Source of the DNA: Hydrolagus affinis
Taxonomy: Eukaryota
Assembly: GCA_012026655.1 (NCBI GenBank)
Contig: JAAILG010000665.1
Location: forward strand, 1 to 64,000
Direction: 5' to 3'
DNA length: 64,000 nt
Shown: positions 43,894 to 64,000 of the stretch, one piece after another
Position numbering within the stretch: the stretch's first letter is position 1
Layout of the letters: every line of letters starts with the position of its first letter
The notes under the pieces: model-generated
Seen by the model: only the letters and a program-made list of their open reading frames with translations
Database searches by the model: none
What the model was told of the DNA's origin: nothing
Made by a program: the position numbers and the translations under genes

Positions 43894-43995
43894 ATGGCAA
43901 CACTATATTCCAGGAATAAGGACCTTTCAAGGAGCAGGAAAATGCAACCAGAGACACCTCCTTGCTCACCTTCACCCACCAGCAAGACTTTCCGA
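43894..43995 (+). CDS. PPP1R12B: Coding part of an alternative first exon for a short smM20-type isoform: [34 protein letters not shown]
   Basis: gctATGg Kozak context, 34 open codons, phase-0 donor |gtaaga that fits the 50648 microexon; ungapped similarity to the recalled human smM20 N-terminus. Confidence 0.85.
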
Positions 43996-51720: not shown

Positions 51721-52199
51721 GTAAACAATGATGCATTTAACGTGAGATTTTTCCTGAAATATCTGCGGCCTTGTATAGATTTTTGAGTGCTGCTCCTGTG
51801 TATTCATGATATTGGNNNNNNNNNNNNNNNNNNNNNNNNNNNNNNNNNNNNNNNNNNNNNNNNNNNNNNNNNNNNNNNNNNNNNNNNNNNNNNNNNNNNN
51901 NNNNNNNNNNNNNNNCCCCCCTGCCTCCCTCCCTGCCTGCCTGCCTGCCTGCCTGGCAGGCTGCTTGGTAAATTTAATAAGTGCGCATTCACAAAATGAG
52001 CATACCGCGAGTGTCCTGATCTCCCAATACAATTGGGAGATGCTGGTTGGTTGAGTATGCTGGTTGGTTGGGTGCTGGATAAATAAAGTTTTACTGTATC
52101 GAAATTATGGATATTAAAGTTAAAATATTAGACGTGGAAAATATCATGAATCTTTGAAAATACTGATTTTATTCTTTGTCTTTTTTGGGGAACAAAAAG

Positions 52200-52304
52200 T
52201 TATACGAAGAGGCTTTGGCTGAAAATGAGAAACTTAAGGCCAAACTGCAAGAGGCACAGCTTGAATTCACTGAAGTAAAATCGCAGCTGGAGAAAGCCAC
52301 ACAG
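52200..52304 (+). CDS. PPP1R12B: 105-nt coiled-coil exon: [35 protein letters not shown]
   Basis: aacaaaaag| (A-rich acceptor) and cag|gttcag; family homology. Confidence 0.93.
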
Positions 52305-52427
52305 GTTCAGAAAGATTACGAGAGATTTTAATTAAAAGATTATCTTTTAATCTTCAATCTCATGATTTAGAAAATTGCTGTTTTTGATGATTCAGCCCAA
52401 ACTAATGCAGGAATTTATCCATTTCAG

Positions 52428-52478
52428 AAGCAAGAACGAATTTCTGATAAGTCCTCTATGCTGGAGATGGAAAAAAGG
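52428..52478 (+). CDS. PPP1R12B: 51-nt exon: KQERISDKSSMLEMEKR
   Basis: atttcag|aag (NAGNAG) and |gtacgt. Confidence 0.93.
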
Positions 52479-53683
52479 GTACGTTAAAAGTTTTCCCCAG
52501 AATTTGTGAAGCATGCACAAATCAAATAAAAATAAAAAACATTACTACTTTAGTTTAGTTGCTTGATAATTCTGTGCTTGTAAACACATTTTAACTATGT
52601 TTATATTAACTTTCTTTTGAGTGGCAGAAGAGGAAAAAAGATAGATTGATTTATCCCTTTCGTCCAGGCCACTCCCATTGCTTCGTGAGCAATGGCTGTC
52701 TGTTCCATGTCCTGTGCCTTATCCACCCACAAACGGCAGAAGGGTTTTCAGCCATTCTGCTCACCCTCTCTGGTATTCCAGCATGGCCTCGCTCAAACTC
52801 TCCCTCAATCACCTTATTCAAGATCCATGTCAAGACATACCTTTAAAAAAAACTTTAAAGTTATGGAGGATATTTCATAGAGCAACACTACTTTTGTAGG
52901 CTACGTGGGTAATAATGAACAATTGCTTATTTCAGCTACAATTTGGTACATCACATGGGGCTTTTCCACCACAGTTCCCAACAGTCAATTTCGAACTTCA
53001 ATTTTGTCTTCAGAATCGAGTACAAGTCAAAGAGACTAAGCAGTTTACTTCAAGTAATGGGGGAAAAAAAACTCAGATACCCTAAGCAACTCTTTAAAAG
53101 CTTCAAAAATATTCAGATGTAAATCTTCAATTCAAGTTAATTATTAAAGAAAATAATGAAGCAATACTTTAGGCGAGCCTAATGAAATGTGCAGTGGACT
53201 ATGGCATTGAATAACCTCACAAAATGAAGAATTGAAACCTGTATTTGTACCAATGCTGGGGTTCCTTAATCTGTTTAAATAATTAGCCTAAAACTATTAC
53301 AAGGCTGAATAATTTCAAGAGGCACAGTTTTCAAGAAAACAAGACTTTTCCTCATTCTTGAATTCATGATCTTCAATTAAATCATTCTGATGGGTCTCCT
53401 GTTAACCATATCAGAACAAGTATCTCTGTCTTAGTGGTCTGAGATTTATAACATGTGTTAAACTTTTAGGATTTTCAGAAAACTCAACAACTCTTCTTAT
53501 GAGACAGTGACAGACCTGTCATATTGTTCATCTTGATAGTTTCCATGATCCAATAGTTACCAACATCAGGATACTCAGTTAAAAAGAAGAGGGGAAGAAT
53601 GAAATAAAAATAAAACTTTTTAGGATTGGAATACTTTCGTGACATATTTATTGTAATACAGAGCATATTTTTTCTTGTTGTAG

Positions 53684-53734
53684 GAAAAAAGAGCTTTGGA
53701 AAGGAAAGTTTCTGAAATGGAGGAAGAGTTGAAG
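53684..53734 (+). CDS. PPP1R12B: 51-nt exon: EKRALERKVSEMEEELK
   Basis: ttgttgtag| and aag|gtatgg. Confidence 0.95.
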
Positions 53735-53821
53735 GTATGGCCCAAATCATAAAGCTTCACTATACAGATGACAGTTCTGTGTCTTATGAAAGAGCAGCTA
53801 ATGCTAAATGAAACCTATAAC

Positions 53822-54107
53822 AATAGTAATAATCCTTGCATTGGATATACAATATAGCGCTTTTCACATCTTCTAGATGTCTCAAAGTGCTTCAAAAAAT
53901 ATACCGTAAAGTGAATTGACTGTACAGTTGTCGGCGAAAAGCGACAGCCAATTGCGCACAGCAGTGTCCAACAAACTGTCATTGGTTGAGGGATTATTAT
54001 CAGGCATGTTGAATAAGGAGACTTGCTCAAGGTTTCACCATGCCTGGAATTGAACCCAGGTTCCTTGCTTGTAAGGCGAGTGCTCTAACCACTCAGCTAC
54101 AGGACTC
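53822..54107 (-). mobile_element. Full-length SINE of the younger family
   Basis: Tail, core and tRNA head all visible on the minus strand. Confidence 0.87.
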
Positions 54108-54116
54108 CACAATATA

Positions 54117-54327
54117 CAGTAAAAGCCTGTTTATCCAGCACCCGATCTACCATAACTTCCATATAACTGGGATATAAAAAAAATCCGCCTTCAATTAACT
54201 GGAATTTATCCGGAAAAATGCATAATTTTTTTTTAAAAAAAAAGTTGCGTTTCGGCCAAATAACTGGCACACGTTTTAACCGGCAGTGGCCAGGTCCCGA
54301 GGATGCAGGATAAATGGGCTTTTACTG
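54117..54327. mobile_element. Second copy of the same MITE
   Basis: ta|cagtaaaagcctgtttatcc...ggataaatgggcttttactg|ta; internal sequence matches 32156-32376. Confidence 0.88.
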
Positions 54328-54844
54328 TATTATGATGTATTACCTTTATTATAAAAAGATTTGTGAAGTTGCGTAACCATTTGAAAGGAATGTACCATCA
54401 TGAGCAAGAAATTCCACTCAGTCATAGATTGCAAGACCACTTTTTCTTAAAATTGAAGATTTCACAGTGTTGTGGAAAATTCTTAAATATCTAAATTTGA
54501 AATCAGTTCATTTTAGCAACTGCAGAATACTAGCAATTAAAGTAAGAATGAATTCAATAATTTTGCAAAATTTTGCATTTTAAGGCCTTACACTTGGTAG
54601 CGTACTTGCCTCTGTGTTAGAAAGTTGTGAGCTCAAATCATGTATTGGGACTTTGAACTCCTATAGTCTAAATTGACACTCGAATGCAGTGCTGGGAGAG
54701 TGCTGCATTATCAACTGTGTTGTCCTTTCGATGAGAATCTAAACGTGAGAACTCTCTGAGGTATTTTGGTTCAATTGTTTTGTTTTTCCCTATTGATTTA
54801 CCATGTTTTTGACTTCTGTTATTCCTATGTCCTGTTCTCTGCAG

Positions 54845-55000
54845 AACTTTCAATAAATGAAGTAGATTGACACTTCAAGGTTTAATTGAGTGTCTGCTGA
54901 CTGAGAACAGAACCTTTACCACTGTGATTGATAAACTGTCTCTCTCTCTCTCTCTCTCTCTCTCGAGTTCTATGAGCAGTTTGAGACTGGGGACTTGTAA
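54845..55000 (+). pseudogene. Decayed homologue of the MYPT2 alternative C-terminal exon (HS-M21A type)
   Basis: Strong acceptor cctgttctctgcag|. Reads NFQ*MK*I, then frameshift, TLQGLIECLLTENRTFTTVIDKLS, then (TC)13, then EFYEQFETGDL*. Recalled human sequence: [44 protein letters not shown]. Confidence 0.78.
54939..54964. repeat. (TC)13 microsatellite inside the decayed exon
   Basis: Direct count. Confidence 0.9.
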
Positions 55001-55339
55001 CCTTTACCCTCACTTTATGCATCTCTTCCCTTCCATAACCAGACAGCTGTTTCAGCTTGACTGCTTTTTGCATGTGCAACAAGGCAATATCTGGTCTAAG
55101 TGAGATTTTCAATCTGTAACTGTTGGTTACATGCCTCATCTAACACTCTGGCCCAAGATGTCTTTCACTTTTTAAATCATCGTCATATTGAGAATAGTAT
55201 GATAACAGTTTTTCTGGAACCTTTATAAAAAAATTCCCACATACTTTTTTTTAACCATCATGTGCCATCTGTTTTGTTTTATTTTTGTGTTGTGTATAAC
55301 TGCGCAGAACACTTATTGGTCCCTTAGGAAGAGGCCAAT

Positions 55340-55915
55340 GATTATTACAAAATGCACAGTACACAGAACAACTGGATAAAGTATAGGAAACTGATTGTTA
55401 GAACCAAAAAGGGAGATAAGGAGAATTAATAGAGGGAATGAAAAAAGCATAGCAGCAAAATAAAGAGGAAATTTAAAACAAGTTTTTTTTTATAGACAAA
55501 AATGAGAGGATAATTGCAGAAATCTACACAAGAGTATGCAGGGGAAGGTAAAATTAGCTTGGAGAGAATGAAAATGACACATGTATTAAAGCAAGTTCTT
55601 GTACAGTAGAGGGAGATGACGAGGTACTGAATGAGCAGAGGTGGATGAGAACGAACAGCTGTTAGACATAGATGCCAGTCAGGAAGTGATAGACAAATGG
55701 TTTATAAAACAAAGTGGACAAGTTGCCCAGACCATATGGGTTTCATCCGCGAGTGCTGAGGGAGGTTAAAGACCAAATAGTGGGAGCTTCGGCGGAAATG
55801 TTTTTTTTAGAAGTCTTGAAAACAGGAAGCAATTCAGGCAATTAGAGGGTGGAAAATATGAATCTCATTCTTCAAAGAAAAACAAGAAAAACCTGGAAAC
55901 AACAGGCCAGCTTGT
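55340..55915 (+). mobile_element. Degenerate CR1-type LINE ORF2 fragment
   Basis: acaagttgcccagaccatatgggtttcatccgcgagtgctgagggag resembles KSPGPDG.HPRVLRE. Confidence 0.7.
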
Positions 55916-55924
55916 GTCACATAA

Positions 55925-56260
55925 ATCCAAGACTGTTTGTGGGACACTGCTGTGTGCAATTGGCTGCCACATTTTGCCTACAAATACACGGTCAATTCAC
56001 TTTACAGTATATTCTGTGAAGCACTTTGAAACGACTAGAAGATGTGTAATGTGCTACACCAAATGCAAGGCTTATTATTATAGGATTACATTGGTGGTGG
56101 CGAGAAATATTACACAAATGATATTGAATCAGAGAAATCAGTAACAAAAAGGTCTATACAACCTATTGTTGTGGGACTGTTTGTGGGACACTGCTGTGCA
56201 CAATTGGCAGTCGTGTTTCACCCACAAAATATACAGTCAATTCACTTTGCAGTACAGTAT
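55925..56260 (+). mobile_element. Two partial copies of the younger SINE
   Basis: actgtttgtgggacactgctgtg occurs at about 55932 and 56176. Confidence 0.75.
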
Positions 56261-56289
56261 ATTCTTACTCACCGAACTAGTGTGCAATC

Positions 56290-56610
56290 TAGGCTTCCCG
56301 ATTCAACGCCAATTCTGGCCAGGCTCCACTGGCTCCCCATCACCGAATGGATCGACCGACTTCAAGATCCTCACACTCGGATTTGAATCTCTTCACTCTC
56401 TGGCATATCCCTACCTCTCTGACCTCCTCATTCTCCAATCCATCAACCAATCCGATCAACTGGTACTGAATCGTTCCTTGCCCCTCCGCCCCACCATCGT
56501 AGGTTGCGCTTTAAGCCACTACTTCCCTGAAATCTTCCTCTTTGACCTCCGCCTCCCGGGCTTGCAGACAGGCTCCGGAGGGCGCTATCTGTATAAATAT
56601 AAGTTGTTGT
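56290..56610 (+). mobile_element. L2-type fragment
   Basis: TPILARLHWLPI and FKILTL peptides; tail gggcgctat. Confidence 0.75.
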
Positions 56611-59321
56611 ATGCATTCTGCTTCAACCACTGCCACTAGCAAGTAATTCCACATCCTACAACAACTCCTTCTAATCCCCTCCTTTGTTTCTATGATCCTT
56701 ATTGCAAAATGTTTGGATAATTGGAAAATATAATGGTATTTTTTGTGTGCAAAATTCTACTACTTGTGAACAAAATAACAGATGTTAGCATTTCTTTCAT
56801 TTCTGCAATTTATAAAAGGTAAATACATACAATTTTTAGCATTTCCTGAACATCAATATAAGGAAACTTTTGATACATTAACTGCTTTATAATAAAATAA
56901 ATAATTCCTCTAACTCGATGGATAATATGTTGCTAATTGTCTTCTCACCCAAGCTGAGATCAGCGAAGTTAGTCATAGATTGGAGCTCAAACCAAACCAG
57001 TGACCTACCTGGTGTATGTGCCTTGCTAACGACTCTATACATTCTCTCAACCATGAGGGCAAGCCCAAAGGCCTATTTCAAACTAAGGCTCAGAAGCATT
57101 CTTCATTTAAAGAGTTCGCCAAAGTGAACTCTGATAAGTTACTCTGGTGGGAACTGGAATTTAACAAGTGTTACTATATGAAGCGATTTCATACTCAGTG
57201 TGACATTACTTGCTAAATATAGATGCAGTTCCGAATTTAATCAATCACCTTGTCTGTCCAAGTGCAGAATATATCATTTAATCACCTTGTATTTTTTGTC
57301 CTCCATCATATGAGGGATTTAAAAAAATAAACAGTTAAATATTTGACATATATTGCAATATTTTCCACACACAGTTGTTTGGATATGGAATGCCGTTCTG
57401 GAGGCGGTGGTTGAGGCAGAATAGACTATTTGCTTTAAAAAGGAAACTAAAGAGATGTCTAAAAAGGAGAAAATTTCAGGCATTTGGTGAAAAGGCAGAT
57501 AAATATGACTGAAAGGATTACTCTCTTTGTCAGAGCCAGCACAGATACAATGAGCTAAATAGCTACCTTCTGTGTGGTAAAGTTCTGTACAGGAAACCCT
57601 TCACTGACTGACTGTCCAGGGCCTTGGGATGTGCTCCTGACGTGAAAGGCGCTACACAAATGTCATTTTGTTTTTGATGTTATTTTGAGCTCCTAAACCA
57701 AACATTGCTTTAACTAGGAACATAGTGAAAATGGCAGCGGCAACTTCCTATAAGAAAGAAATCAGGAAATAATTGTAAGCAAGAAATCAGCAACAACACT
57801 CAGGGGTCCAATGCATTGCAACAATTCTGAGATACAACTTTTTAATTCACAGAATGCAGAGCAACTGATGTATTTTACAGTCGAGTTATACAAACATTTG
57901 GGGGCTTTGGATCTTTCTTTTTCTATCTCTGTCAATCTTTCTCTGTTTGTATATCTTTCTGTGTGTCTCTCCCTTTCATTCTCACTCTGTCTTTAACCGT
58001 GAAATCCAAAACATTATGCCGCTGTGTACAAATGTTTATGAAGTGCATATAAACCCTGTGGATGCAAGGCACTTTTGATTCTAACACTCATCCTAATTTA
58101 GGAGGGAGATTTTAGATACCTTTGAATTAAGTAATCAGTAATAAAGTATATGTGAGATGATATCTGCGTTTTCATAGTCTCAATACTTTTAACTAGACAA
58201 TATACACCAGCTCAGCTTTGAAAGCTGTAACACATTGGTTTCTATTTTCCTCCACTAAAGTCTGATTTGTCTATAATTTTAGCTTTTTTCTTACCGATGT
58301 AAGAATTTGCTGAATTTTATCCATGCCCTTTCGACATAGCAGCTGTTTTGAGCAGAAGCATACAAGAGTCATTGTACCAGACAGAACATTATCAAAGCAA
58401 TGTAATGCAGCATTTTTTAAGAGGCAGAGATGTTGACCTTCATTAAATGGCTGAAAGGGCAGCTCCTTTGTACGTTGTAGTGTTCATAATTTTGTTATGT
58501 TCACTTCACCTTTTTGTAAACGACAGATAACTGCTGAGGCCTCTCTCAGGAAATGTTCTCATAATTATCATCTGAAAGCTTGACAGAAAGTAAATTGTCA
58601 CAAGTATTAAGCTTCCAGATTTTAAGCAGTAAAATCCAATAATATCGGGCAGCCACTTGCACAATTCTGTCAGTTTGATGACTTTAAACTGCCGTGATTG
58701 TGAGAATATATTTGAGAAATTGTACATGCGACAGTTTCTATCTAAAATCTGATCACTTGGGAAAATGAACTGCATTATGCTTATGATTCTTCTCTCCCTT
58801 TCGGTAAGTTTATTATGATCCATTGTTTAAAATTATTGGAAGTTTACACCTGGATTTTGTTTACATGTTTCTACTGTTAAAAAAGAAATTCAGTTATCTT
58901 TTCATGAATGTTTACTAACAATATGGATGGGTGTTATTGCTGGCGGTGAAATTTAAAGCTCAATCACTGCCCCAAAAATATACCTGAAACTAAAACGATC
59001 ACCCCCTGTGCATCAGTCAGTCAATTTCATTTTGTACAAAAAATGTCCTCGGAGACTGAGTTAGATTTTTAATTTAGTGCCAAATTAGGACAGCTATGCC
59101 ACTAGGAATTGAGAGTATCTGGACTTAATTTGCATAGATCCGGTATGGGAAAAAAAAGTATGGGCTGAAATCAAACCCACCTTCCAGCTACAAAAGAACA
59201 ATATGTTACAATCCATGTTACAATATGGTACAATATGTTAAACCAAACCAATATCGCCTTGCATCCATTGTGATGTTATTGCTTATTTCTAACGCTATTG
59301 GCAGTTCTCTATCAACACTTT

Positions 59322-59632
59322 AATAATAAAGTGCATTTGATATAGCGCCTTATCACGTCTTCAGGACGTCTCAAAGCTCTTCACAGAATATGTAAAGTGA
59401 ATTTACTATTTTGTGGATGAAATGCGGCACAATCATGTTTTGAGTGACCAAATAATAAAAATGATTATTATTATTAAGGAATTGTTATCCCGGAAAAACG
59501 ATCCGCCAATTGACTTACAACTGGGTTTTGACTTACTGCTAGGTAAACAGTGGCGTGTGTAAGGAAGGAAAGTTCCCCTAGGTTTCGCCCTGCCGGGAAT
59601 TGAACCCAAGTCATCGAGAGCTCTGACCACGA
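59322..59632 (-). mobile_element. Diverged copy of the younger SINE family
   Basis: gcatttgatatagcgcc tail; gggaattgaaccca B box. Confidence 0.7.
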
Positions 59633-60449
59633 GTGAATTTGCAAGAAAATGTGTTTTAGTTGCAGAGAAAGGTTAAACTTGTTTTGTGTTGTAGTTGGAC
59701 AGAAAGGAAAACCCACGACCAAACTGGAATAATATGATCCGGTCAGCGCTCCTTTTAAATCTTTTAAATTCTAAATTATCTTGTGTTTCTAGGATCAAAA
59801 ATAGTCCTAACACTCATTCACTCCTTGATGTAATCGGAGAGGTTCATGCCTTTCCAAATACATCATGGAGTGATTGAGTGTTAGGAAACAATAAATCAGT
59901 TAAACGTGATCTAAATGATATAGATTCCATATGTGCAAGGTTTGCCATTAAATGGCAGGCACACCATAAAATGATTAAATGCTTGGAGAAAAAGAAGGGA
60001 AAATTGTAGCAAATTGAATGCAGAAGTACTAAATAGTGGGGATTTGTTTATAGTAATATAACTCGCATAAAAGGGGTTAGTGACACTTTATAAGACACTT
60101 TAATGCTTCCTTACCTGGCCTAAAATATTATACATTCAGCCAGTAACTGGAAAACATATGGAATCAATCATTAGATTCAATGGAAGCCAAATAGAAGATT
60201 ATAAATTTCCTAAAAATGACAAGATAGATGAGATCTACCATTTCTGAAGCTGAGCAACTTCATATAATTGTTGAGGATCCAACATCTCACTAATTGTGTA
60301 ACTCCTTAAGACATAGTGAGTGTATCTAGAAGTCTAAAAGCCCAGGGAGAGAATACCCCATCAAAGTAACTCTGTTATAAACTGATGTTGCTGTATCCTG
60401 TTCTGTTTATCAAAATGAAATGCAGACATATGACAGTTTGAGTCATCTA

Positions 60450-61078
60450 TATAAGAACATAAGAATTAGGAGCAGGAGTAGGCCATTCGGCCCCTCGAGC
60501 CTGCCCTGCCATTTGATAAGATCATGGCTGATCTTCTGACCTAACTAATTACCTGCCCTACCCCCTTATCCCCTAATCCCTCTATATTTTAAAAATCTAT
60601 CAGTCTCAGCCTTGAAAATGTTCAAGGACTGAGCATCTACAGCCTTCTGGGGTAGTGAATTCCATAAATTCACTACCCTTTGAGTGAAGAAATGTTTCCT
60701 CAACTCTGTTCTAAAAAGCTGACCCTTAATTTTAAGATTATAACCCCTGGTTATAGATTCTCCTACCGGGAAACAGTCCCTTACTGTCTACTTTATCCAC
60801 CCCTTTAAGGATCTTATGTTTCAATAAGGTCTCCCCTAATTCTTCTGTTCTCTAGAGAATACAGCCCTAGTCTATTCAACCTATCCTCATAGGTCTGTCC
60901 CCTCATCCCAGGAACCAACCTAGTGAATCTACGTTTCCCCCCCTCTAAGGCAAGTATGTCCTTTATTAAGTAAGGAGATCAAAACTGCACACAATACTCT
61001 AGGTGCGGTCTCACCAAGGCCCTATACAGTTGCAGCAGGACTTCCCTACTCTTCTACTGCAAACCTTTTGCGATGAAC
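60450..61078 (-). mobile_element. CR1/HER1-like LINE 3' end
   Basis: ataagaacataagaattaggagcaggagtaggccattcggcccctcgagcctg...aaactgcacacaatactctaggtgcggtct, the typical chondrichthyan CR1 terminus. Confidence 0.88.
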
Positions 61079-62446
61079 GCATAAGGCTTTTTCTTAGATG
61101 GATTATATTGCTCATCATCATCTTGGGAAACACTTCAATCACCAATACAATATTTGCTCCTAAGATTTATTTATTACATTTCAGAAACCCTATGTAATTT
61201 TCAAAATCTGGAAAACGACAATTCAGTTAGTTTAAATCATGTTACAAAAGTACCTCTAATACATGACCAGATTCCCACGTAAACTTTACTTGCAAGAGGA
61301 GAGAAAAGACATTTTGTTAGCATTGCAAATGAATCTTGGCATTGTGTGATGTTGTTCATTGTGATAAAATACCATTCCAAATAAGTGCTTTGATTCTGGT
61401 GGAAAGACAGAAGAACCTGCCCCATCGGTTTCTCAACATGGCAAACCTCCAAAATGACTTATTAGGGCATCGACATCAGTCTGTGTTTTCCAGGAAAGCC
61501 TTTTGATTAACCATACTTGAAAGTCCAAATACAGGGTGACCAAAAAGTCATGATACCATTACTTCCAATAAGCCTTAAAGAAACAATGATTTTTTTTGAT
61601 AATAGGGTAGCTTCATGATTCTTTGGTCACGCTGTACATTTGTTCTGAGTAGTATTTGAAATAAGTGTTCTAGTTTCATTACAATTACCACAAATGAATG
61701 AGCTGCATATATTTTGATTGTTTTGTCATCAAATGTTTAAGCTATCAAAGTCAAGAATGCAATTAAATTTTGTTTATTTTTAACTCAGGAAAGTCTTAAA
61801 CTGCCATATAACATATTTCTGTGTCGTTATGACTTGAATTTCCGCTCAAATTACTCTATAACTAAACACTTACGTTGTCTCCAGAAATAATATTGGATGT
61901 GATGTACAATTACTGGTCTGTGAAGTTATTCATTGTTAACAAATTGGGTTACCAGTTTTCTCCCCTTCTGTTTCCTCATCTCTGAAAGATGCTGACTCTT
62001 GCTGGTTTACATTTGCTGGGCTGCTGGAAACCCTAATTACCATATCCAGGTGGCAATTACACAACCTAAGCCTGATAATGTCAGCAGAGTATTGGAGGCA
62101 CATAGTTTCAGTTCAAGGTTATCTCTGAAACTGTCTTGCAGTGTCTGCATCATGGGCAAGAACCATGACAGAATTTGATTCTCTCCACCTCTGGGGAGCT
62201 AAGGCTAATAGTAGGGTGCAGGATCCCTAGCTGAAATCACCTACCCAGCACAGAGTGGAAGCATAGAAGTGTAAAAAGCGGCCCAAGATATCTGTGCCGT
62301 CGTTACCTGTTACTCTCTTTTTAAAAAAAACTTAATCGAGTGTTCCGCTTCTCTATGTCCCTCAGTAGTTTACTGCTCAGGTGCTTTTAAAGTTGGAAGA
62401 GTTCAGAGAGTGTTCACCATTTTTAAATTTACTTTTCTGTCCACAG

Positions 62447-62533
62447 GTTTTAACGGAGCTGAAATCAGATAACCAAAGGCTGAAAGATGAGAACGGAGCT
62501 CTCATCAGAGTAATAAGCAAATTATCAAAATGA
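62447..62533 (+). CDS. PPP1R12B: Terminal coding exon, leucine zipper: [28 protein letters not shown]
   Basis: ctgtccacag|; TGA at 62531-62533. Confidence 0.97.
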
Positions 62534-64000
62534 AGAAAAAGAATCTGTTTGGGCAAAGAGGCAGGAACAGAAATCAACTGAGAACAAGCCTGCTTTTGCT
62601 CTGTAATAGAAGCATCACAACACAAAAGCAGTTTCGTCAGCAAAGGGGAAGGAGCTTGCACTTGCACACTGTCTGTTCATGGCTTTCTCCCTATATTATT
62701 TTCTTTATGGTTACATCAGATTGCAACTGCAAGGCTTTAAGTGATTCATTAAAATGACCTTGTTTACAAGAAATGTTGGGGCAAAAGTACAGAACTTAAA
62801 AAAAACACGCGCAAGATCATGTTTATTGAGGGAGAGCTTGCAGCTTTATCACAATCGAGCCACATTCTGTAGTGTTTCAGATATGGCTTTTAAGAAATGC
62901 CTTTCACTACCACAGCTGCTCCACATCCTGTTGATTGTGCAGCTCTTATTTGCCTGATGCACATTGGGAAGGATGTTCCTGCTGCACAGTATTCATTCAG
63001 AGACAATTCTGCACAGTAATCGGAACCACTGCAGAAACTGGCTCTTGTATTAAAAGAAATCCCATCAGCTAGTCTGTATGGTACAGAAAGTATTAATTGT
63101 ACGTGCAATATGCTCTTATTTTTAACGTGATGCTCGTATCAAGTTCAGCTGCCTTCCTTTCACTTTATTTCCGTTACCTTCATTTTAAGCAGTGTATTTT
63201 AATTCTTCCCTCATTGATTTTCTCTTGAAGTTTTGAATTGGTTGGTTGTGAGTGCTTTGAAATGGTCAAATTGCTTTTGGTCATGTCTTTGTGACTTTTG
63301 TGAAGTTAAGTATTTGTACTAATGAGGGTCACAGCTCTGTGCTCGTTTTCCCAGGAACTGTTGTTTAAAGGTGAAACCGGTTCAGATTAAGTGTTTAAAA
63401 GGGCTGTTTTAAAAGATGAATTTTAGTGTAAGGTTGTTGGTTTGCATTTTTCTCTCAACACACTCCACTTTTTGTTTGCTTTACTTCTATTTCACAATAG
63501 GCTAACTTTAGGTCATACATTGTTAACTTTTATTCTTTTGACTTTATACACTGATAAGGGATGTAGCAAATAAATGTAGGCTCAGACATCTACTGTATTT
63601 ACTCTTGAAATTTTCACTGTTGCATGAATCATATACTGTATTCCCATGTAATGCTACAGGAACTTAAAACAAAATGGTACTTTTCTGTAGATAACAGCTC
63701 CTTATAAATACAATAGCGTTCAGGGAAGGAAACCATCCAAAGACTTAAGGTATAGTTATTGAAAATTTGATGGAATACAGATGTGAACATATTTGTACAG
63801 TGCATTCCAACGCTAAAATGTCTGGTACAGACAAAGGCAATAAGGTACTGTAATTCAAGTAGCATGTATAGATCAGTGGTACATACAATCAAGGTTATCA
63901 TAGTTTAGCCTGTTTTTAAATGGTCAGATCTAAATGTGGCTGAAAATGCTTGGCCTGATTCTTATTTAAAGATTATTATGTAACATGGGTCTTGCAGTAG
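62534..64000 (+). other. Probable 3' UTR; candidate polyadenylation hexamer AATAAA at 63569-63574
   Basis: Follows the stop codon, U-rich and free of recognisable repeats; the true 3' end cannot be determined. Confidence 0.5.

Follow-up and report, generated by a model that had tools for sequence, protein, structure and literature searches.

The window analysed here, 64,000 nt of the forward strand of contig JAAILG010000665.1 from the chimaera Hydrolagus affinis (assembly GCA_012026655.1), carries a PPP1R12 gene on its + strand, whose matched exons span about 3292-62533. The closest database proteins are from Callorhinchus milii, at 96% for the query exon and 97% over 110 C-terminal columns. 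The gene can be identified as PPP1R12B (MYPT2) by an internal alternative first exon of the M20/M21 type; M20 is described as a product of the MYPT2 gene in PMC13755552. In a 22-row tree, the PPP1R12A rows are enclosed by a 100/99 branch, with the window sequence outside it, while the PPP1R12B rows form no single supported clade. Besides the terminal zipper exon of the window, the same genome holds two more, one 12A-like and one 12C-like. Judged from these comparisons, the window gene is the PPP1R12B (MYPT2) of a chimaera. One Callorhinchus milii model (P0001) stops precisely at the penultimate exon, either as a partial model or because a stop follows immediately, and the last intron of the window contains a 38-nt inverted repeat (59805-59886, 87% complementary, 6-nt spacer).

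Between the penultimate and terminal exons, with an acceptor in phase 0, lies a stretch whose sequence identifies it as a decayed orthologue of the alternative MYPT2A/HS-M21A exon of PPP1R12B, which has the same placement (Table 1). A functional MYPT2A/HS-M21A exon has an open frame of 44 codons; here the frame entered after the CAG (54842-54844) gives three codons and stops at codon 4. Both stops that the initial annotation attributed to glutamine codons align to CAA and CAG of an intact paralogue exon, and the (TC)13 repeat is indeed at the Leu-Ser codons. The frameshift that it placed near 54869 is real, a 2-nt deletion, and lies a few bases to the right. Because the two indels sum to +21 (-2+23), the old stop TAA (54998-55000) is in the acceptor frame again, as had been noted for the end of the tail. 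Each of the four AG sites within 54844-54879 runs into a stop in at most seven codons. An AG at 54890 would give a long open frame, though 46 nt inside the exon. Having coding-exon homology together with stops and frameshifts, the stretch has the sequence marks of a pseudogenic exon. Of the first 33 codons, 14 encode a residue, or show a stop or break, that is absent from all 35 intact vertebrate tails; when each intact tail is compared with the others in the same way, it has 0-3 such codons. This result is partly built in, as the 35 tails were chosen by a pattern fixing columns 2, 7, 11 and 24, and tails of other lengths were left out.

Table 1. Features of the PPP1R12B 3' region and the decayed alternative exon (window coordinates)
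Feature	Position	Strand	Basis or remark
M20/M21 alternative first exon, coding part	43894..43995	+	tblastn: small-subunit isoforms of shark, ray, chicken and coelacanth, 53-85% identity
Constitutive penultimate coding exon	53684..53734	+	phase 0 end at AAG/gtatgg
Surviving 3' splice-site region	54763..54844	+	82 nt without AG, pyrimidine tract, CAG
Decayed coding part of alternative C-terminal exon	54845..55000	+	intact copies have 44 codons plus stop
Nonsense codon TAA	54854..54856	+	paralogue counterpart CAA (Gln 4)
Nonsense codon TAG	54863..54865	+	paralogue counterpart CAG (Gln 7)
2-nt deletion, exact place ambiguous	54873..54879	+	at first leucine of heptad repeat
(TC)13 microsatellite	54939..54964	+	net 23-nt insertion, grown at Leu-Ser codons
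Putative untranslated 3' part of cassette exon, 46 nt	55001..55046	+	paralogue similarity z 4.5, 0/1000 shuffles; length fits mouse exon
Presumed ancestral donor position, CT not GT	55047..55048	+	paralogue CAG/GTGTTA aligned
TGCATG hexamer, candidate motif	55069..55074	+	just downstream of presumed exon; 17 on + strand of window
Possible second donor GTGAGA, putative	55100..55105	+	aligned to paralogue GTGAGG; matrix score <3 here
Terminal leucine-zipper exon, coding part and stop	62447..62533	+	intact, expressed; depth about 195 (X13) and 39 (X14)

Evidence for this homology comes from within the same genome, where a PPP1R12A-like locus keeps the exon intact and without a stop (G000:C22815:3156-3290, E 5.9e-11). 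In a colinear alignment to this intact exon, 87 of 133 nt of the window are identical, and the gaps amount to one deletion of 2 nt and one insertion of 23 nt (z 9.2; none of 1000 dinucleotide shuffles scored as high). Identity by codon position is 26/44, 36/44 and 25/45, so that second positions are kept best. Seven database tails compared as protein to DNA score 34-68 against the exon, each above its own random maximum (31-38) from 57 random 316-nt segments of the window, with a narrow margin for the eel tail (34 vs 31). The homology to the HS-M21A tail proposed in the initial annotation, which was to fall if no significant alignment could be found, is therefore borne out, and the human tail that it quoted agrees with the table in the supplement of PMC8373072. 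An intact tail is found in database PPP1R12B proteins of manatee, alpaca, birds and eels, and in PPP1R12A proteins of mammals, birds, a sturgeon and teleosts. No alternative exon was found in the PPP1R12C-like locus of the same genome.

The chimaera PPP1R12A-like second-zipper exon (G000:C22815:3156-3335) is intact, with 70% identity to the predicted MYPT1 tail of a crane. It is tied to its gene by inference only, because the upstream exons are on another contig (C4017). Predicted MYPT1 isoforms with this tail come from horse, cats, cattle, pig, bats, bears, dogs, squirrels, birds, a sturgeon and teleosts. One record under the name of Klebsiella pneumoniae (P0294) is a bird-type PPP1R12B exon fragment on a 317-nt contig, probably a contamination. 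Similarity between the two chimaera copies extends beyond the coding part: the non-coding flanks (54745-54844 and 55001-55160) resemble the flanks of the paralogue at a level reached by 2 and 5 of 1000 shuffles, respectively, and the flanks of the terminal exon do not. These conserved 12A/12B flanks are candidate old splicing-control elements, and their similarity would fit long-standing regulated splicing in both genes, with no present selection implied.

For cartilaginous fishes, the clusters examined comprise 82 records; 58 of them reach the penultimate exon and 3 carry the alternative exon, all from the sevengill shark Heptranchias perlo, and absence of the exon from the annotation of the other species is no proof of loss. 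The three Heptranchias isoforms (P0144, P0146 and P0148) use a damaged exon and continue beyond the old stop, where their sequence can still be aligned to 55001-55064. Their exon has a 3-residue deletion and Pro at the place of Leu 32, and it has lost the stop through a frameshift. It shares Asp 30 and Gly 42 with the window, and none of its lesions is found in the window. Since the lesions are not shared, the comparison suggests that the sevengill shark orthologue decayed separately from the chimaera exon. In a search of representative sequences with the paralogue exon, none of the 10 matches looked up of 28 was named as a cartilaginous fish, and a homologue search with the Heptranchias tail region gave 5 candidates, none of which was scored. 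Other C-termini occur after the penultimate exon elsewhere: chicken M20 (P0280) and ducks (P0188, P0194) have tails of three and six residues that lack the zipper, and stingrays (P0140, P0142) have an in-frame 19-residue insert between the penultimate and terminal exons. A search of 52001-63000 gave no homologue of the chicken and duck tails or the ray insert, a weak test given such short targets.

Mouse muscle shows a cassette event of three arcs; those at 134765897 and 134766077 delimit an exon of about 181 nt, for which the inclusion peptide comes from this tail (PMC10770608). The chimaera exon, by its alignment, likewise appears to have been a cassette with its own donor, which the initial annotation had missed, and this donor appears to be lost here. 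Nonsense-mediated decay is triggered by a stop-to-junction distance of 50-55 nt, and the mouse cassette, with about 46 nt from stop to donor, is below this trigger. The paralogue has CAG/GTGTTA 45 nt past its stop, and the window has CAG/CTGTTT 46 nt past the old stop. An exon of 181 nt plus the net 21 nt of the indels would end on the same CAG/CT at 55046/55047, and the GT donor that a functional exon has about 46 nt past its stop is absent there. Opposite the CTG of the window, the Heptranchias read-through peptide carries Val (codon GTN), in a downstream-only alignment equalled by 1 of 283 random segments. The ancestral donor was thus likely lost by a change from GT to CT, as far as these alignments tell. 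The presumed donor of the paralogue itself scores <3 in a donor matrix built from 20 sites of the window gene, so that the donor call is based on position and homology and not on strength. The paralogue GTGAGG at +91 after its stop, aligned to the possible second donor of the window, scores 6.0. The paralogue also has a downstream TGCATG, a candidate RBFOX-type motif, at a non-aligned offset.

The acceptor is well preserved. Its CAG ends at 54844 and is preceded by 57 nt (54785-54841) of 75% pyrimidine, close to the tract of about 60 nt first described. With splice matrices from 20 of the gene's 21 junctions, one unresolved junction being left out, it scores 7.4, mid-range among the 20 true acceptors of the gene, and its score is equalled or exceeded at 61 of 3565 other AG sites. 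Its pyrimidine fraction over -40 to -4 is 0.76, the highest in the gene (maximum of the 20, 0.73). The initial annotation took this survival as a hint of use. If 15% of sites have changed, a rough estimate from the changed codons, the AG survives with a probability of about 0.72, so that an intact acceptor can be explained without selection in an exon decayed to this degree. Over 54488-54929, organism B differs from the window at 9 of 442 nt (2.0%), and its seven other listed contigs differ by 0.7-2.0%; there is thus no extra conservation of the region, in a test of little power. A pyrimidine-rich stretch after the old stop (55013-55042), followed by CAG, also scores acceptor-like. The exon is further flanked by an inverted pair of a high-copy repeat (53855-54011 and 55900-56056; 157 nt, 78%), and pairing of the two could loop the exon out.

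Expression was examined in two raw-read RNA runs (X13 and X14) of one sample, tissue not stated, of organism A, a relative about 1-2% diverged; 27% and 30% of the runs were read, and reads were cut at the (TC) repeat, so the coverage test applies to the 5' half of the exon. Depth on the terminal exon and 3' UTR is 161-224 (X13) and 39-47 (X14), and coverage of the alternative exon in this single sample from a related chimaera is at intron level. In X13, consecutive 32-nt bins over 54756-54915 have depths of 1.0, 1.6, 3.0, 2.1 and 1.6, with no rise at 54845; the three loose ends listed for this run, each needing 3 reads, are all elsewhere. The bin 54879-55275, which holds the cut repeat, has 0.34 (X13) and 0 (X14), and repeat-free intron bins have 0.4-7.6 (X13). 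The junction table at wide scale is filled by repeats and displays neither the skip nor the inclusion junction; for reads joining 53734 to 54845, proposed earlier as a check, no junction end is listed at the acceptor in X13 of this one sample of a related species. The depths cap inclusion in this sample at about 1.5%, and the reads present, few as they are, look unspliced. As to the lesions themselves, a contig of organism B crosses the 2-nt deletion with 0 gaps, and a low-depth contig (3.7) of run X2 matches 54984-55185 with 0 differences, including the presumed donor position; its depth is far under that of the main contigs of the run, so that it may stem from another animal. Run X12 did not cover the exon.

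We consider it highly probable that the exon is dead and skipped, that only the usual leucine-zipper tail is made from this gene, and that MYPT1 (PPP1R12A) keeps the exon instead. Under this explanation, the ancestral exon would have been a stop-carrying cassette of about 181 nt, which swapped one zipper for a related one and had its stop some 46 nt ahead of the last junction. The PPP1R12B copy would then have come free of selection, plausibly because PPP1R12A retained its own; the donor would have changed from GT to CT, the acceptor would have survived by chance, and the exon would now be skipped in all tissues. Against a dead exon speak the intact acceptor, the most pyrimidine-rich of the gene, the paralogue-like flanks, and the GTGAG at 55100 that is common to the paralogue. 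The acceptor with its tract and this GTGAG could instead belong to a leaky or poison exon, in which weak use of the acceptor would be paired with a cryptic donor, for instance 55099/55100. The first stop would then be about 240 nt before the last junction, so that the message would be removed by nonsense-mediated decay, and such decay would mask these messages in steady-state RNA. We find this improbable, given that the 55100 site scores <3 in the donor matrix, that the Heptranchias read-through peptide appears, by eye, to lack a GT at that site, that organism B has no excess conservation and that coverage equals that of the intron.

The initial annotation, whose homology, decay and ancient duplication stand, had gone on to offer, beside a dead exon, a zipper-off switch, and this part is not supported: the ancestral GT has likely become CT, reads are at intron level, and there is no step at the acceptor, in one sample of unstated tissue. 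For such a regulated switch, 54845 would be used as a terminal exon in some tissue, giving a zipper-less protein that ends three residues past the penultimate exon. A splice to 54845 would indeed read NFQ and then stop, there is an AATAAA at 55459, and a three-residue zipper-less tail is known in chicken M20 (P0280; PMC13755552). However, X13 has neither a junction end nor a coverage step, its depth stays near 1 out to 55440, unlike a 3' end, and X14 has depth 0 in the bin holding the cut repeat against 39 on the terminal exon. The chicken tail is also unlike that of this exon, which other birds keep intact in 12B, and the Heptranchias exon is damaged without an early stop, so that no shared short tail has been kept. 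A regulated switch is thus very unlikely, and we see only a slight chance that an unsampled tissue such as heart re-uses the acceptor at 54845 to make a zipper-less MYPT2/M20, convergent with the short M20 tail of chicken. There is next to no prospect that the exon works in the species at large and was broken by assembly errors or in an allele of a single individual. The assembly does consist of many fragments (245,464 contigs), and at the two stops independent reads have a depth of 2-3, below the listing threshold for a base-by-base check. This idea is already refuted in large part, since the organism B contig has no gap across the deletion, the X2 contig matches without difference, the numerous missense changes do not look like errors, and the exons on either side are intact.

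The ancient exon duplication suggested in the initial annotation is already published: PMC8373072 lists it as PPP1R12B event 165, a C-terminal tandem exon duplication dated to the last common ancestor of Bilateria, with an orthologue in Drosophila Mbs, and PMC9741552 matches the PPP1R12B pair with Drosophila Mbs. Moreover, a database match shows that an ostracod protein carries the same tail. Intact tails have leucine mostly at positions 11, 18, 25 and 32, so that the ancestral exon would exchange one zipper-like repeat for another; by its sequence, the ancestral alternative tail is a second leucine repeat and not a zipper-less end. We found no literature on the tail peptides, and none on chimaera or elephant shark in this context among the matches listed; Dippold and Fisher 2014 and Shichi 2010 may bear on the point.

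The chimaera exon is like the MYPT2A/HS-M21A exon of event 165 in gene, intron, phase, colinear 44-codon tail and stop, and in its homology to the terminal zipper exon, but the latter is translated and intact in mouse muscle, whereas the chimaera copy is disabled by two stops, two indels and likely donor loss. As a duplicated exon in a working gene, disabled by stops and frameshifts, it resembles the pseudogenic exons of PMC2718932, a survey of four mammals; the chimaera exon differs in having a functional orthologue and a surviving paralogue copy. It also resembles the loss of a homologous exon from one paralogue after gene duplication while the other keeps it (PMC4494069), but the separation of isoforms is incomplete here, as chimaera PPP1R12A keeps both exons and PPP1R12B the terminal one only. 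The zipper-negative switch by MYPT1 E24 likewise concerns the C-terminal zipper of a MYPT subunit. The chimaera exon follows the penultimate exon and, where intact, codes for a second leucine repeat. E24 differs in lying one intron upstream of it and in shifting the reading frame by its length of 31 or 13 nt, and the role of the zipper in PKG1-alpha binding is known for that different exon (PMC13755552, PMC9367544 and PMC5087845). Thus, the exon is most likely a pseudoexon of a familiar sort, cleanly documented, and an ordinary unused fossil rather than a regulatory switch.

Read as a dead exon, it forms an evolutionary record in which a second zipper tail as old as Bilateria was lost from chimaera MYPT2 and kept in chimaera MYPT1; the same tail is used from MYPT2 in mouse muscle and is differently damaged in the sevengill shark. 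The MYPT1 copy is absent from the 11 human PPP1R12A coding transcripts given in section 13 of PMC9367544 and from the tandem-exon catalogue in the accessible parts of PMC8373072. This copy is the more useful lead: if expressed, it would provide a third MYPT1 C-terminus, with putative PKG1-alpha and M20 binding.
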